DNA from: Escherichia phage p000y | Reading direction: 5' to 3' (one strand) | Sequence record: MK047718.1 | DNA: 64,000 nucleotides | Shown: piece by piece, positions 22,851 through 29,108 of the stretch | Layout: every line of letters begins with the position of its first letter | Position numbering within the stretch: the stretch's first letter is position 1 | Program-made: the position numbers and the translations under genes | Notes under the pieces: model-generated | What the model saw: the letters and a program-made list of their open reading frames with translations, nothing else | Database searches by the model: none | What the model was told of the DNA's origin: nothing

Positions 22851-23183
22851 ATGTCTGAAGTACAACTCCCAATTCGTGCTGTTGGTGAATATGTCATTCT
22901 GGTTTCTGAACCCGCTCAAGCAGGTGATGAAGAAGTTACCGAATCAGGACTTGTGATTGGTAAACGTGTTCAAGGTGAAGTTCCTGAACTATGTATAGTT
23001 CATTCTGTAGGTCCTGATGTTCCTGAAGGTTTTGTTGAAGTCGGTGATTTGACTCCACTACCAGTTGGACAAATTCGAAATGTTCCACATCCATTTGTGG
23101 CTTTAGGACTTAAACAACCTAAAGAAATTAAACAGAAATTCGTAACATGCCACTATAAAGCTATTCCGTGTCTTTATAAGTGA
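22851..23183 (+). CDS. 31: Co-chaperonin gp31 (GroES-like)
   Basis: 110 aa, [34 protein letters not shown]... near-identical to remembered T4 gp31. Confidence 0.95.
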
Positions 23184-23191
23184 TATAAATA
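23184..23191 (+). promoter_or_regulatory. Late promoter (TATAAATA) between gene 31 and rIII
   Basis: Exact TATAAATA directly after gene 31 stop. Confidence 0.5.
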
Positions 23192-23307
23192 ACTATATGA
23201 AGAGAACACTCTTCTAAGCGGTAGCCTACAACTGAGAGACTTGTCGAAAGAAGGTGAAATTCAGACGAACGTGGCTACTAAATATTATCTCGAATTGAGA
23301 ATTTAAA

Positions 23308-23556
23308 ATGATTAAACAATTACAACACGCTCTTGAACTGCAACGAAACGCATGGAATAACGGTCACGAAAACTACGGCGCGTCAATTGATGTTGAAGCC
23401 GAAGCACTGGAAATCCTGCATTATTTCAAACATCTGAACCCGGTACAGGCAGCTTTGGCCTCTGAACTGGAAGCAAAAGATGAACTGAAATATGCTAAGC
23501 CTTTGGCTTCTGCAGCTCGTAAAGCAGTACGTCATTTTGTTATTACCCTTAAATAA
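23308..23556 (+). CDS. rIII: Lysis inhibition accessory protein rIII
   Basis: 82 aa, same length and position as T4 rIII. Confidence 0.8.
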   Translation: MIKQLQHALELQRNAWNNGHENYGASIDVEAEALEILHYFKHLNPVQAALASELEAKDELKYAKPLASAARKAVRHFVITLK

Positions 23557-23851
23557 GTTTTAGGTGATTCGCTACCTTAAGTGCGGCTAGAAAATCGAGG
23601 AGCCGTCGAACTGTCTGATTAATGATTTGCGAATCATTATAGTTTTAAGGCCCCGGCAGTTTTACGGTGTACCTCTTGAATGTATTTTGTACTATCACGC
23701 GTCAGAAAAAGGTTATCTGTCTAAGTCGTGGTTGGTATGATGACGGGTTTATGGTTATCCTGTCGTTAAATATCCAAAACCTATGTTCCCCTTGAGGGCT
23801 TGCGCAGGCAATGTCAATAAGTCCTGCATTTTCATTTAAAGAGAATTTATA

Positions 23852-24031
23852 ATGGCAAAACAAGCTAAAGCAAAGAAAGCAGTTGAAAAGAAAGTTGATG
23901 GTACCTCTAAACGCGCTGGATACAAGCGTGGGTCGAACTCTCGTATTAATCAAACAGTTGAGAAGATCATGCGCAGAGCACGTGCAGTTCTTCGAGATGA
24001 TGCTTCTCGTTTTGGAAAGGTTGTTGCATAA
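23852..24031 (+). CDS. Small highly basic protein (59 aa), hypothetical
   Basis: ATG 23852 to TAA 24031 translated by hand: MAKQAKAKKAVEKKVDGTSKRAGYKRGSNSRINQTVEKIMRRARAVLRDDASRFGKVVA; followed directly by tetraloop terminator; below the 60-aa track cutoff. Confidence 0.45.
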   Translation: MAKQAKAKKAVEKKVDGTSKRAGYKRGSNSRINQTVEKIMRRARAVLRDDASRFGKVVA

Positions 24032-24036
24032 TTTTA

Positions 24037-24058
24037 GGGAGACTTCGGTCTCCCTTTT
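24037..24058 (+). terminator. Tetraloop terminator GGGAGAC-UUCG-GUCUCCC + UUUU
   Basis: Same hairpin as at 8805; directly follows the 59-aa ORF. Confidence 0.8.
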
Positions 24059-24091
24059 GTGCGTTTAGGGCAGAAAAAGTTTAAAAAAGAT

Positions 24092-24120
24092 GTTTACTCT
24101 CCTGTAGGATGTGTTACTAT
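24092..24120 (+). promoter_or_regulatory. T4 early promoter
   Basis: GTTTAC-N17/18-TACTAT. Confidence 0.6.
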
Positions 24121-24162
24121 AGACTTGTACCACCTAATCAATAAAACAAACCGGAGAACAAA

Positions 24163-24531
24163 ATGAAAATCAATCTGAACTCATACATCAAATGTAAAGA
24201 CCACGATGGTTATAAAGCTATCGAAATTAAAGAATTCCAGTGGATGTTATACAAAGAGCAATTTGAGTTCGTAGGTTGTATGACCCCTGAAGGTCCTTCA
24301 GATGATTTCTCTTGGAAAATTGTGTTAGCAAACTTTTTCACAGGTGACACATACGAATTAAAAACTATTATTACCGGTAAAATTCGTTCAGAAACATATG
24401 TTGACGAAGAAACTGGTTACTCTGAAGTTGTTACATGGTATCAAAATGGACGCATTACAGCAGATAACCTGATCGAAAAAATGAAAGCCAAAGGTGTTTT
24501 AAATTTAGACAATTGGATTAAAGTTGCATAA
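24163..24531 (+). CDS. Hypothetical protein (30.x block)
   Basis: 122-aa ORF after early promoter 24092-24120. Confidence 0.55.
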   Translation: MKINLNSYIKCKDHDGYKAIEIKEFQWMLYKEQFEFVGCMTPEGPSDDFSWKIVLANFFTGDTYELKTIITGKIRSETYVDEETGYSEVVTWYQNGRITADNLIEKMKAKGVLNLDNWIKVA

Positions 24532-24535
24532 AACA

Positions 24536-24565
24536 GTTTACTTTGGTACAGGTTATGTTATTATA
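24536..24565 (+). promoter_or_regulatory. T4 early promoter
   Basis: GTTTAC-N18-ATTATA; inverted repeat GGTACAGG/CCTGTACC brackets the -10. Confidence 0.55.
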
Positions 24566-24605
24566 GACCTGTACCAACAAACAACTTAAACATCTGGAGA
24601 ATAAA

Positions 24606-24971
24606 ATGAACTACATCAACTTCGAACGTAAATATGTTTCTAACGGTATCGCTGGTTCTTCTGAAGTTATTTGCCTGTGGAAACACGAAAACGGTTCAGT
24701 ATGTGAAATTGAGCAGTATATGACTCCTAATTACGTTTATATGCGATTTGAAAATGGCATCACGGTTTCAATCACGATGGAAGGTTCAAATTTTAAAATT
24801 GCATTAGATGATGATTTCCGTCAGCGTGATTTAGGTACTCATCCTTGCTGGAATGGTGTTAATCGTAAACTTCTGGTTAAAACTTGGATTCGTCATATCC
24901 TGAGTAACCGAGCTAAACCTGAACATCTCGAAGCAATCTTTGATGTAGTTCTTAACGAATTTGATATCTAA
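24606..24971 (+). CDS. Hypothetical protein (30.x block)
   Basis: 121-aa ORF after early promoter 24536-24565; GGAGA RBS. Confidence 0.55.
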   Translation: MNYINFERKYVSNGIAGSSEVICLWKHENGSVCEIEQYMTPNYVYMRFENGITVSITMEGSNFKIALDDDFRQRDLGTHPCWNGVNRKLLVKTWIRHILSNRAKPEHLEAIFDVVLNEFDI

Positions 24972-24978
24972 ATTAATT

Positions 24979-24994
24979 GGGAGCCGAAGCTCCC
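24979..24994 (+). terminator. Intercistronic tetraloop hairpin GGGAGC-CGAA-GCUCCC
   Basis: Perfect 6-bp stem; weak U-run, so may be a stabiliser rather than a full terminator. Confidence 0.5.
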
Positions 24995-25007
24995 TATTGA
25001 GGAAATT

Positions 25008-25622
25008 ATGTTTAAAGTTAATACTTTTTATAAAATGAATTTTAAAAACGGGGATATTACTCCACGCCTTAAAAACATGTTCTCATATGACCTTATCGAG
25101 CCTTTTGAAGTTTTAGAAGTTACTGATGCTGGCTCGGTTTGTGAAATTAGAACTTCTGAAGGTAAAATTTATCAGGCAGGTGTTGGTAAATTCAGTAATT
25201 GTTTTACTTTAATATTCTCGACTGATTTAGATGAGCATTTTATTGAATGTCCTAACCATAAGGTCTACGAAGTTCCATGGAAAGAAACTAAGAAAAATGG
25301 ACCGCATGAATACACGAAGGTTGAAACTCCTCACGGCGATATGTGGCGGCATAACTCTCCTTTCGGAAGTAAAGGAACATTTGCTCAACTGCCTAAACCT
25401 TATGACGATGAAAAATACATCGTCGCCTTTTTATCTGAACAGGGTACTCAAGACCGTGGATGTCAACGAAGTGGTTTACTAAGTGAACTTGAAGCTCATA
25501 ACCAAGCACGTGAATTCGTTGAGAAAAATCCTGGCTCTGAAGCTCTAGTCATGAAAGCAATTACTCAATATATCACTGCTCAACCTGTTGTTCATCCGGT
25601 AGAAATTAATTTCATTAAGTAG
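25008..25622 (+). CDS. Hypothetical protein (30.x block)
   Basis: 204-aa ORF; no motif recognised. Confidence 0.55.
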   Translation: MFKVNTFYKMNFKNGDITPRLKNMFSYDLIEPFEVLEVTDAGSVCEIRTSEGKIYQAGVGKFSNCFTLIFSTDLDEHFIECPNHKVYEVPWKETKKNGPHEYTKVETPHGDMWRHNSPFGSKGTFAQLPKPYDDEKYIVAFLSEQGTQDRGCQRSGLLSELEAHNQAREFVEKNPGSEALVMKAITQYITAQPVVHPVEINFIK

Positions 25623-25652
25623 TTTACATCCAAGGACGGATTAGAGTATAAT
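25622..25652 (+). promoter_or_regulatory. T4 early promoter
   Basis: GTTTAC-N19-TATAAT. Confidence 0.55.
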
Positions 25653-25676
25653 GATTTCTTTAGTAAGTGGAAAAAT

Positions 25677-25874
25677 ATGAAATTTTTAATAGCACAAACA
25701 GTCCAATTAAAAGGTGTTGGAATTCCTGGGGTGATTTTTAAAGTTCTCCCTGAATTTAAAACCGGCGCTGGAATTATCAATGAAGCGTATGCTGTTCAAT
25801 GGGTTGATTGGACTTCTGACATACGTATGGGTAAAGAGTTATCTCCTATTAAAGGGTTGAAACATGTTGAATAA
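25677..25874 (+). CDS. Hypothetical protein
   Basis: 65-aa ORF after early promoter 25622-25652. Confidence 0.45.
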   Translation: MKFLIAQTVQLKGVGIPGVIFKVLPEFKTGAGIINEAYAVQWVDWTSDIRMGKELSPIKGLKHVE

Positions 25875-26076
25875 ATTAATCCAGAAATTGTTAGGTACAG
25901 AAATGGTTGAAGTTACGTATCGTGTGACTGATGTAAGCCCATGGACCCGAAAAGTTGAACCATATACTAAAACAATTAAAATGCTGAAATATGACAGTGG
26001 ATTATCTATCAAAGACCGTCTACCGGCTTATGGTCATTGGGCTGATGTTGAAATTATAAGTGTTAAAGATGTCTGA
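25864..26076 (+). CDS. Hypothetical protein
   Basis: 70-aa ORF. Confidence 0.45.
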   Translation: MLNKLIQKLLGTEMVEVTYRVTDVSPWTRKVEPYTKTIKMLKYDSGLSIKDRLPAYGHWADVEIISVKDV

Positions 26077-26527
26077 GTTAGAGATAAGAAGTAATTTCAA
26101 GTGGCCGTCATGTGCATTAAGTAATTTTGCTCAATGGCCTTTTGTTATGGATGGTATTCAATTCGGAGGTCTTGAAGGATTTCTCCAAGGATGTAAGGTG
26201 AAAAATGTTGAACAACAAAGACGTATATTTGGGTTGTCTGGATTGGCTGCACAGCAAGCTGGAAGGTCTTATGCAAGAGCTCAGGACCGTGGGACTCTCT
26301 TCTGGTTAGGAGTTCCGTTTTCAAGATACTCCGAAGCGTGGAAAGAATTATACACAAATGCATATTTTGAAGCCGCGATCCAAAATAAGGGGTTTCGTGA
26401 TGCCTTACAAGCCTCTAAAGGAAAAATTTTGAAGCACAGCATGGCTAGCCACCTAACAAAAGATGATACAATACTAACCGAAGCTGAATTTATTGATGTG
26501 TTAAACCTATTAAGAGACTCTTTATGA
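26060..26527 (+). CDS. NADAR/YbiA-like (DUF1768) domain protein, putative N-glycosidase / ADP-ribose processing enzyme
   Basis: 155 aa; N-terminal segment LSNFAQWPFVMDGIQFGGLEGFLQGCK resembles remembered YbiA/NADAR core (FSNF..WP..DG....EH.FQA.K). Confidence 0.5.
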   Translation: MLKMSELEIRSNFKWPSCALSNFAQWPFVMDGIQFGGLEGFLQGCKVKNVEQQRRIFGLSGLAAQQAGRSYARAQDRGTLFWLGVPFSRYSEAWKELYTNAYFEAAIQNKGFRDALQASKGKILKHSMASHLTKDDTILTEAEFIDVLNLLRDSL

Positions 26528-27339
26528 AGCCTACTATTTTGACTGATATTGATGGTGTATGTTTAAGCTGGCAATCTGGACTTCCTTATTTTGCCCAAAA
26601 ATATAACCTTCCATTAGAACATATTTTAAAAATGATTCAGGACGAAAAATTTATTTCTCCTGGTAAACTGTTCAATACCGACGATAACCTTGGTAAACAA
26701 TTAATAGAAAAATATAATAGCTCTGATTTTATTCGTTACTTAGCGCCTTATTCTGATGCTCTTCGAGTTATCAATAAACTAAAAGAAGACTATAATTTTG
26801 TAGCCGTGACGGCGCTAGGTGATTCAATTGATGCTCGATTGAATAGACAATTTAATTTGAATGCTTTGTTCCCAGGCGCTTTCTCTGAAGTAATGATGTG
26901 TGGTCATGATTCTTCAAAGGAACAATTATTCGAACTAGCTAAAACAAAATATAACGTAATTTGTTACGTTGACGATTTAGCTCATCATTGCGACCATGCG
27001 GCAGAAATTCTTAATGTACCGATTTATTGGTTGGCTCGTGGTGAACGTGATGATATTCCTCGCACTGCACAACGTGTACACACGTGGGATGATATTGAAT
27101 CTCGTTTGGTTCCACCTGAGCATAATTCAGATTCAGATCGTGAAGACCTTTTAAAACGATTGGCGGATTTGCTTAAAGAATCAGGTGCAACAAGCCCAGG
27201 TGCATGGCCTAATCAAATTGGCGCTCCGTCGAATCCGTATACTTGGCGAACTCCAGGACCAACCGATATGCAGCCATGGTGGACGATTCAAAACTTTCCT
27301 TTAGATTCGTCCAAATGGACTTGGTCTATAAATTGTTAA
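26524..27339 (+). CDS. HAD-superfamily hydrolase (putative phosphatase/nucleotidase)
   Basis: 271 aa; N-terminal HAD motif I LTDIDGV; possible motif IV YVDDL. Confidence 0.55.
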   Translation: MKPTILTDIDGVCLSWQSGLPYFAQKYNLPLEHILKMIQDEKFISPGKLFNTDDNLGKQLIEKYNSSDFIRYLAPYSDALRVINKLKEDYNFVAVTALGDSIDARLNRQFNLNALFPGAFSEVMMCGHDSSKEQLFELAKTKYNVICYVDDLAHHCDHAAEILNVPIYWLARGERDDIPRTAQRVHTWDDIESRLVPPEHNSDSDREDLLKRLADLLKESGATSPGAWPNQIGAPSNPYTWRTPGPTDMQPWWTIQNFPLDSSKWTWSINC

Positions 27340-27348
27340 GGGCTAATT

Positions 27349-27618
27349 ATGTTTGTAGTTCATGATATTACAGATGGCAAAAACACCACACGTGACTACG
27401 GTCATGTTAACATGTTCTTTCGAGACTGGCCGGTGTTTCGTTCAGTAAAAGACGCAGAAATATTTAAAGAGTGTGTTGAACAAGGGTTCATCTACATTTC
27501 AGAATATTATGTTGAAGGACTCGGTAAATGGATTACCACTTATCAGAAAACGCTGAAATCGCTTCTAGATGAAGTGGCTTATAATAGAACCGTAACCAAA
27601 ATCGAGGACATCAAATGA
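27349..27618 (+). CDS. Hypothetical protein (30.1 position)
   Basis: 89-aa ORF immediately upstream of DNA ligase. Confidence 0.5.
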   Translation: MFVVHDITDGKNTTRDYGHVNMFFRDWPVFRSVKDAEIFKECVEQGFIYISEYYVEGLGKWITTYQKTLKSLLDEVAYNRTVTKIEDIK

Positions 27619-29108
27619 TTTTAGATATTTTAAACCAAATAGCTGCGATCGGTTCTACTAAAACAAAACAAGAAATCCTTAAGAAAAATAAGGACAACAA
27701 ATTACTTGAACGTGTGTATCGTTTAACATATGCACGTGGTATCCAGTATTATATTAAGAAATGGCCAGGACCAGGTGAAAGGTCTCAAGCGTATGGTCTT
27801 CTTGAATTAGATGACATGTTGGATTTTATTGAGTTCACATTAGCCACTCGTAAACTCACTGGTAATGCTGCAATTAAAGAGCTCATGGGTTATATCGCTG
27901 ACGGTAAACCTGATGATGTAGAAGTCCTTCGTCGTGTAATGATGCGAGACCTTGAAGTAGGTGCTTCAGTGTCTATCGCGAATAAGGTGTGGCCTGGACT
28001 TATTCAATTGCAGCCACAGATGTTAGCATCTGCATATGATGAGAAATTGATTACTAAAAATATTAAATGGCCTGCATTTGCCCAATTAAAGGCAGATGGT
28101 GCTCGTTGTTTCGCTGAAGTTCGCGATGATGGCGTTCAATTCTTTTCTCGTGCCGGTAACGAATACCATGGTCTTACTCTATTAGCAGATGAACTAATGG
28201 AAATGACTAAAGAAGCTCGTGAAAGACACCCTAATGGGGTTTTAATCGACGGTGAATTAGTTTATCATTCATTTGATATTAAAAAGGCTGTGAGCTCAGG
28301 AAATGACCTGTCGTTCTTATTTGGCGATAATGAAGAATCCGAAGAAGTACAAGTTGCAGACCGTAGCACTTCAAATGGTTTAGCAAATAAATCTCTTCAA
28401 GGGACTATTTCTCCTAAAGAAGCTGAAGGTATGGTTCTTCAAGCCTGGGACTATGTTCCTTTAGATGAAGTCTATTCTGACGGCAAAATTAAAGGTCAGA
28501 AATACGATGTTCGTTTTGCTGCTCTTGAAAATATGGCTGAAGGCTTTAAACGAATTGAGCCAATTGAAAATCAGTTAGTTCATAATCTTGATGAAGCTAA
28601 AGTGGTTTATAAAAAATATGTTGACCAAGGTCTTGAAGGTATTATCCTTAAAAATCGTGATTCATATTGGGAAAACAAACGCTCTAAGAACCTAATTAAA
28701 TTTAAAGAAGTTATTGATATCGCTTTAGAAGTTGTAGGATACTATGAACACTCTAAAGACCCTAACAAATTAGGTGGTGTCGAACTCGTATCACGTTGTC
28801 GTCGTATTACAACCGATTGTGGTTCGGGTTTTAAAGATACAACTCATAAAACAGTTGATGATGTAAAGGTTCTTATTCCTTTAGATGAGCGTCATGATTT
28901 AGACCGTGAACGATTAATGGCTGAAGCTCGTGAAGGTAAATTAATTGGACGTATCGCTGATTGTGAATGTAATGGTTGGGTTCATTCTAAAGGCCGTGAA
29001 GGTACTGTAGGTATTTTCCTTCCAATTATTAAAGGGTTCCGTTTTGATAAAACAGAAGCGGATTCATTTGAAGACGTATTTGGACCGTGGTCCCAGACAG
29101 GTTTATAA
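27615..29108 (+). CDS. 30: ATP-dependent DNA ligase gp30
   Basis: 497 aa; MILDILNQIAAIGSTKTKQEILKKNKDNKLLERVYRLTY... and KADGARCF adenylation motif; matches T4 DNA ligase. Confidence 0.95.
   Translation: MILDILNQIAAIGSTKTKQEILKKNKDNKLLERVYRLTYARGIQYYIKKWPGPGERSQAYGLLELDDMLDFIEFTLATRKLTGNAAIKELMGYIADGKPDDVEVLRRVMMRDLEVGASVSIANKVWPGLIQLQPQMLASAYDEKLITKNIKWPAFAQLKADGARCFAEVRDDGVQFFSRAGNEYHGLTLLADELMEMTKEARERHPNGVLIDGELVYHSFDIKKAVSSGNDLSFLFGDNEESEEVQVADRSTSNGLANKSLQGTISPKEAEGMVLQAWDYVPLDEVYSDGKIKGQKYDVRFAALENMAEGFKRIEPIENQLVHNLDEAKVVYKKYVDQGLEGIILKNRDSYWENKRSKNLIKFKEVIDIALEVVGYYEHSKDPNKLGGVELVSRCRRITTDCGSGFKDTTHKTVDDVKVLIPLDERHDLDRERLMAEAREGKLIGRIADCECNGWVHSKGREGTVGIFLPIIKGFRFDKTEADSFEDVFGPWSQTGL

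Follow-up and report, generated by a model that had tools for sequence, protein, structure and literature searches.

An open reading frame of 204 codons, placed in the 30.x block of a T4-like phage between a hairpin and an early-type promoter, raises the question of what gene it is, how it came to occupy this position, and what its product may do for the phage. We examined it within the window, i.e., the whole 64,000-nucleotide stretch of Escherichia phage p000y DNA (MK047718.1) that was analyzed. The ORF, which had been reported by a sequence-only reading of this DNA, is indeed present on the forward strand, and its quoted sequence was confirmed. The best explanation that we can offer is that the ORF is a real patchwork allele, named 30.6A, that is transcribed by read-through from upstream, and that its product would bind a host factor; as a whole, we give this explanation a probability of about one in two. 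We are far more certain of its first part, namely that the ORF is the accessory gene 30.6A, that it is an alternative allele to 30.6, and that it is a patchwork of two modules, which we hold jointly with high confidence. The features on which the following paragraphs draw are collected in Table 1.

Table 1. Features of the 30.6A locus, in coordinates of the window.
Feature	Position	Strand	Description
Early-type promoter-like site, TTTACT-16-TATTAT	24537..24564	+	TG before the -10; upstream of 30.7; match annotated in TuIa
Gene 30.7	24606..24971	+	121 aa; Pfam Phage_T4_Gp30_7, E = 3e-52; conserved left neighbor, anchor of the swap site
Intercistronic hairpin, GGGAGC-CGAA-GCUCCC	24979..24994	+	Perfect 6-bp stem, four-base loop; 13 bases upstream of the 30.6A start
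Shine-Dalgarno sequence, GAGGAAA	24999..25005	+	Common to the T4 30.6 allele; RBS annotated in TuIa; last conserved sequence before the alleles diverge
Gene 30.6A	25008..25622	+	ATG start; 204 aa, 23.4 kDa, pI 5.8; soluble
N-terminal beta-rich module	25008..25271	+	Residues 1 to about 88; MFKVN..Y...PFxVxEV..G
Middle motif	25284..25391	+	Residues 93-128; NGxHxYT...W[RK]HNSP[FW]G..GT[FY]; predicted four-strand beta-meander (both models)
C-terminal strand-loop-helix-strand unit	25392..25619	+	Residues 129-204; conserved loop ExGTxxRxCxRSxL
Early-type promoter, GTTTACA-N18-TATAAT	25622..25652	+	First base overlaps the 30.6A stop codon; part of the swapped segment
Gene 30.5	25677..25874	+	65 aa; right neighbor; T4 homology resumes at its ATG

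The translated ORF matched PHROG 17531 over its full length (E = 7.5e-145, with residues 1-204 aligned to positions 1-204 of the profile), and was 94.6% identical to gp30.6A of phage TuIa (AJ621579.1, CAF21717.1), which is also 204 amino acids long. The window comes from a Mosigvirus, a T-even phage of the RB69 group, and its nearest relative is Escherichia phage TH12 (Mosigvirus utam), in which the region as a whole is 98.9% identical and the 30.6A copy itself 99.5% identical. The TuIa gene, like that of the window, sits between 30.7 and 30.5 with a hairpin, a ribosome-binding site and a downstream promoter, and its depositors annotated the stem-loop, the ribosome-binding site and two promoter hexamers as in the window, giving the function of gp30.6A as ‘unknown’. 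Apart from the hairpin loop, which is CGAA in the window and UUCG in TuIa, there is no substantial difference between the two loci. It is to be noted that TuIa is filed under Tequatrovirus, whereas the annotated 30.6A genome records that were examined all belong to Mosigvirus (7/7). The gene is therefore not new, since the TuIa record contains it under its present name and PHROGs has it as a cluster, and our additions to it are modest: its chimeric make-up, its link to a superfamily, and the two-allele structure of the population. Among the papers that could be searched, none mentioned gene 30.6A or gave a function for the 30.6-30.9 genes; as it stands, 30.6A is one of several hundred uncharacterized accessory ORFs of the T-even phages.

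The gene order in this part of the window is dCMP deaminase, 31.1 (WYL_2), gp31 (Cpn10), rIII, 30.9, 30.8, 30.7, 30.6A, 30.5, 30.4, 30.3, 30.2, 30.1 and DNA ligase, where the names of 31.1, gp31, 30.8, 30.7 and 30.3 come from Pfam matches, and the others from position and T4 gene order. By this map, 30.6A lies directly downstream of 30.7 and upstream of 30.5. It had been described as the largest unassigned ORF of the block, which it is not: the 271-amino acid homologue of 30.2 (26524-27339, forward strand) is larger and has no Pfam match either. This homologue begins MKPTILTDIDGVCLSW, with a DxDG motif resembling the one in HAD-type phosphatases. The 30.3 homologue (26060-26527, forward strand; Pfam Phage_30_3, E = 2e-69), the start of which overlaps the end of 30.4, belongs to a family for which a link to NADAR-type ADP-ribose-removing domains has been proposed.

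In the same position, T4 carries gene 30.6, and the identity of the two genes was ruled out on two grounds: the proteins show no similarity (BLASTP E = 1.6 over 12 residues), and gp30.6 matches PHROG 2153 while 30.6A does not. The gp30.6 of T4 and RB69 resembles 30.6A in its slot, upstream hairpin, Shine-Dalgarno sequence, probable transcription unit and unknown function, but gp30.6 proteins are only 93-106 amino acids long, those of T4 and RB69 having 93-95, as against 204. Moreover, the stop codon of T4 30.6 overlaps the start of 30.5 with no promoter between, whereas a promoter follows 30.6A in the window. The earlier treatment of the ORF as a T4 30.x gene thus calls for amendment, since T4 lacks 30.6A and the allele is found mainly in Mosigvirus. 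Alignment of the T4, TuIa and window DNA showed that all three agree in the end of 30.7, in the hairpin and in the Shine-Dalgarno sequence, that they split at the start codon, and that homology returns at the ATG of 30.5. Since the divergence runs from the one start codon to the other, the swapped segment consists of the ORF together with the promoter that T4 does not have, and the hairpin and promoter flanks mark the boundaries of a swap site.

The same alternation was seen on a larger scale when presence and absence of the gene were scored across a phage collection, in which 728 records share the flanks, 614 of them encoding 30.6 and about 113-120 encoding 30.6A; the two alleles thus cover essentially all flank-sharing records. 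The choice of allele differs even within a genus, as RB69, also a Mosigvirus, carries 30.6 and not 30.6A. In RB69 (L035, 6674-7175), 30.6 is followed directly by 30.4, without 30.5, so that the gene to the right of the slot varies as well. The slot was also seen in further states, namely a truncated 30.6, a 146-amino acid relative of the N-terminal part of 30.6A, and 30.6 accompanied by an extra ORF. The extra ORF, of 96-98 amino acids (PHROG 28157), lies between 30.6 and 30.5 in L011 (3704-4000) and L020 (3701-3991); its homology to the N-module of 30.6A was considered, and was unsupported by BLASTP or jackhmmer. The occurrence of 30.6 and 30.6A in near-identical context, even within one genus, offers a clean natural experiment on the host-specific function of the slot.

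Such mutual replacement could mean that 30.6A is a functional analogue of gp30.6, doing the same job or acting on the same host target in a different way. The fact that both genes occupy exactly one position behind a common hairpin and Shine-Dalgarno sequence, and that the pair accounts for nearly all records with these flanks, would agree with this view. Nonetheless, gp30.6 occurs in SP18 together with a short C-module ‘30.6A’, and in L011 and L020 the slot contains another gene besides 30.6, so that it behaves as an insertion hot spot and not as a one-function locus. Functional analogy of the two alleles therefore appears unlikely to us.

As to the internal make-up of 30.6A, phmmer, run exhaustively against 1.84 billion protein representatives, returned six relatives only: a truncated copy, P0007 (146 amino acids), which matches residues 1-83, and four proteins of 116-152 amino acids that match about residues 91-195. 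Beyond the truncated copy, the relatives thus split into those that match the N-module only and those that match the middle and C-terminal parts only. Local iterative searches revealed the N-module also in CkP1_0221 and in genes for 156 and 164 amino acids on two metagenomic T4-like contigs, and all N-module genes found, which belong to other T-even lineages, have 30.7 immediately before them. The relatives of the middle and C-terminal parts, namely the short ‘gp30.6A’ of SP18, CkP1_0226, P0003 and P0004, all lie in another slot, between 30.9 and 30.8. They have the C-terminal unit in common with 30.6A (46-70% identity over residues 93/130-190) and, except for SP18, the middle motif as well; they differ from it in their length of 116-152 amino acids, in lacking the N-module, and in having a complete stem-loop and promoter element downstream. 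Stand-alone C-module genes were located in SP18, CkP1, L024 and L026. In L024, a 173-kb T4-like metagenomic contig, a gene for a 182-amino acid RyR-domain protein (PF02026; 3382-3930) lies between 30.9 and the C-module gene.

In 30.6A, therefore, a module of the post-30.7 type and a module of the pre-30.8 type are joined in one frame, and the GC content differs between the N-terminal part (31.9%) and the rest (40.7%). From this distribution and composition, we infer that 30.6A is a chimera that arose by recombination within the block. No paralogue of either module was detected elsewhere in the 64-kb window, and scans of IMG/VR with the module alignments yielded one contig only. A word-indexed search of 5.8 billion proteins, performed with the single sequence and two profiles, returned only its own cluster and relatives from the 30.x block, all ‘hypothetical’. 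30.6A is confined to T4-like phages.

Within these phages, the kinship extends further. Every N-module protein ends in a similar strand-helix-strand unit, and comparison by hhalign with other 140-180-amino acid genes of the 30.x block, from CkP1 and the two contigs, gave a probability of 89% (E = 2e-6, 119 columns). Direct matches of 30.6A to PHROGs 622, 3710, 5804 and 8920 were weak (E = 1e-6 to 8e-3), and the superfamily alignment was coherent. With moderate confidence, these sequence comparisons place 30.6A in a wider, fast-diverging, two-part family of 140-200-amino acid proteins in the 30.x block of T4-like phages. Such membership would explain the weak PHROG matches, as well as the tail of BFVD hits, which consisted of uncharacterized 140-190-amino acid proteins of Yersinia, Serratia, Klebsiella, Edwardsiella and Aeromonas T4-like phages. 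Beyond one helix alanine, no residue is conserved throughout the superfamily alignment. The narrow C-module family, on the other hand, conserves the aromatic motif and the ExGTxxRxCxRSxL loop, neither of which is conserved in the wider superfamily. The aromatic middle motif and the loop are our candidates for a binding surface.

For the flanking elements, a tetraloop hairpin upstream and an early promoter downstream had been noted, and both were found as described, but the proposal built on them, that the ORF is an independently regulated unit, was not supported. In a 66-nucleotide context the hairpin has a folding energy of -15.1 kcal/mol (z = -2.4 against shuffles); it is not followed by a U-run, the scan of the forward strand did not call a terminator here, and an Rfam search over 23000-28000 returned nothing relevant. 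A hairpin after the 30.7 stop codon was present in almost every T4-like locus examined, with any downstream gene and with compensatory changes in the stem, which may be GGGAGC, GGGGC/GCCCC, GGAGGC/GCCUCC or GGGCC/GGCCC; the loops elsewhere are mostly UUCG or GAAA, and also UUCA. Being kept whatever gene follows, the hairpin is a conserved element of the 30.7 flank. No promoter was found between it and 30.6A, and the nearest upstream promoter-like site is the one that precedes 30.7. Considering the lack of both a U-run and a promoter after the hairpin, 30.6A is most probably co-transcribed with 30.7; that is, it would have no promoter of its own and is most likely read through the hairpin from the site upstream of 30.7. 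The -10 hexamer of that site (24559-24564) is held in the loop of a perfect 9-bp inverted repeat, GGTACAGGT/ACCTGTACC (24545-24575, forward strand), which might be a regulatory or recombination feature.

The promoter at the 3' end of the gene, by its orientation, points away from 30.6A and is predicted to serve 30.5. It matches 11 of the 12 sigma-70 consensus positions and ranks first among the sites of the 4.2 kb that were scanned; of the exact motif GTTTAC...TATAAT, the 64 kb contain two copies against an expectation of 0.12. Judging from these promoter-like sequences, 30.6A is probably expressed early.

A stem-loop, a variable gene and an early promoter in succession recall the PeSL elements of T4-type phages, which comprise a stem-loop, an AT-rich region, -35 and -10 hexamers, a Shine-Dalgarno sequence and an ATG, flank variable ORFs, and bring about the shuffling of these ORFs (PMC2839356). 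The 30.6A locus has in common with PeSL (PMC2839356; PMC4122927) a G-rich/C-rich stem-loop, here the hairpin described above, and a TTTACW...TAYWAT-type promoter, between which lies a variable ORF of a hyperplastic region; the swap boundaries, too, fall in the stem-loop and promoter elements. The promoter (TTTACA-N18-TATAAT, 25623-25652) is of the PST/T4 early type, the consensus of which is TTTACW-N17-TAYWAT (PMC4122927), with a spacer longer by one base. The locus differs from PeSL in that the two halves are split, the stem-loop lying upstream and the promoter downstream of the ORF in place of one contiguous intergenic element, and in that the stem-loop, having no U-run, is not terminator-like. 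By analogy, then, the layout resembles a split PeSL; neither a mini-circle nor a recombination event was seen at this locus.

A complete PeSL-type element occurs nearby in the window, at about 24037-24160 on the forward strand, where the stem-loop GGGAGAC-TTCG-GTCTCCC with its T-run is followed by GTTTACT...TACTAT. The place of this element, at the 30.9/30.8 junction, is exactly that of the stand-alone C-module gene in SP18, CkP1, L024 and L026. In each of these, the gene in turn follows a stem-loop with no promoter between, and has a complete stem-loop and promoter element downstream. With a stem-loop before and an early promoter after at both loci, it appears that in both slots the variable gene sits between these elements. 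It was further found that the -35 region of the promoter after 30.6A, GTTTACATCC, is a 10-mer identical to that after the stand-alone C-module genes; this hints that the promoter travelled with the C-module, although one shared 10-mer is too little to claim it. Overall, the two modules of 30.6A, taken together with the stem-loop, gene and promoter layout, provide a worked example of gene assembly and movement in the hyperplastic regions of T4-like phages.

As for what the protein may do, the earlier statement that it has no known function was borne out. Sequence searches of Pfam, NCBIfam, PADLOC and PDB gave nothing significant, whether the query was the protein itself or the profile of one module; no PADLOC-DB family matched 30.6A or three of its relatives at E <= 1, and Pfam, NCBIfam and PDB, which include several anti-defense families, had no match for 30.6A. 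That statement would have been overturned by a T4 30.x homologue whose function is established; one was looked for and none was found. Structure prediction was carried out in two AlphaFold2 runs, based on alignments of 7 and 14 sequences. The models were poor overall (mean pLDDT 50 and 58, pTM 0.3), and a Foldseek search of the PDB returned nothing; no function emerged from the fold searches. Both models agreed on an all-beta N-terminal part, four strands in residues 94-125, a strand at 137-142, a helix at 160-173 and a strand at 178-183, the best-modelled stretch being the C-terminal unit, with a pLDDT of 80-82 for residues 160-180.

Early, non-essential genes in the hyperplastic regions of T-even phages often act on host functions or host defenses. 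It is on this ground that stoichiometric binding of a host factor was judged the most likely role of 30.6A. IpI and IpII are an example of T-even genes with such action (10.1101/2023.04.06.535777). In the mechanism that we envisage, 30.6A would be a soluble, non-enzymatic binding protein that is made early in infection and acts stoichiometrically on a host factor, in the service of host takeover or as a specificity factor of counter-defense. The loop, GTQDRGCQRSG in this copy, and the aromatic beta-meander may together form the binding surface, and the N-module could be a scaffold or targeting domain. As a default reading drawn from the class, position and timing of the gene, this role is tentative. 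A binder is favored over an enzyme in that 30.6A matches no enzyme family and no solved structure, that the superfamily has no invariant residue other than the helix alanine, and that the protein is small, acidic and soluble. No hydrophobic segment is present in it. Against the non-enzymatic reading, H, E, T, R, C, R and S, all of them polar, are kept in the narrow C-module family and could form an active or ligand-binding site, and the poor quality of the AlphaFold2 models leaves room for an enzyme fold.

A more specific version of host-factor binding is that the fusion links N-module genes of the post-30.7 type and C-module genes of the pre-30.8 type on one host target, and that the 30.6/30.6A swap is a determinant of host range or counter-defense among strains of E. 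coli and Shigella, working by means of a fold and a binding loop unseen in characterized anti-defense proteins. Stated in such detail, the proposal is speculative and, on balance, improbable. Should 30.6A prove to be a counter-defense factor, it would be the first of a new family, given that it matches none of the known folds or families.

Two other roles were weighed, both of which we consider quite improbable. In the first, 30.6A would be a ‘sponge’ for a small-molecule or nucleotide signal of host immunity, with the Arg/Cys/Gln-rich loop and the aromatic beta-meander as a putative pocket. The conservation of H, Y, W, R, C, R and S in the narrow C-module family would fit such a pocket, as would a small, soluble and probably early protein, but neither sequence nor fold resembles a solved sponge protein or any other PDB entry, and the motif is missing from the wider superfamily. 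In the second, an SH3/Tudor-like N-module and the alpha/beta unit would act as a nucleic-acid-binding regulator on phage or host RNA or DNA. Here, the N-module is predicted to be all-beta, its best PDB sequence match is a Tudor domain (E = 0.17), and the neighboring gene 31.1 has an Sm-like SH3 barrel; the matches, however, are not significant, no known nucleic-acid-binding motif was found, and the protein is acidic (pI 5.8), with a basic character confined to the 36 residues of the middle segment. Less probable still is a ClpS-like adaptor or mimic that would redirect or block host Clp-dependent proteolysis. The match of 30.6A to the ClpS adaptor fold was equally good for many generic alpha/beta sandwiches. 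No Pfam ClpS match was found, and an hhalign probability of 0.06% led us to reject the relationship at the sequence level.

That 30.6A is a real gene was seen from its aligned copies. Among nine copies of 30.6A, the mean pairwise dN/dS was 0.19 (35 pairs with dS > 0.03), with synonymous divergence of up to 0.23; by region, the ratio was 0.28 for the N-terminal, 0.16 for the middle and 0.17 for the C-terminal part. The amino acid replacements cluster at residues 84-94 and 128-133, which correspond to the two inferred linkers. 30.6A is thus a genuine gene that evolves under purifying selection, and more than a chance ORF. In one copy, that of phage vB_EcoM_G2469 (L028, 301-913), the frame is shifted by +1 near codon 111, and the annotated product has 115 amino acids; this copy is a pseudogene unless the shift is a sequencing error, and, if the frameshift is real, 30.6A is dispensable. 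That the ORF is a decaying remnant or a chance frame carried along in a hyperplastic region, to which this frameshifted copy and the absence of the gene from most relatives might point, is scarcely credible beside the low mean dN/dS, the retained Shine-Dalgarno sequence, and an ORF that about 113 records retain in intact form at a synonymous divergence of up to 23%. Inside 30.6A, an ORF of 83 amino acids runs in an alternative frame (25231-25482, forward strand) and was also seen in L007; in view of the purifying selection on the main frame, we take it as a by-product.
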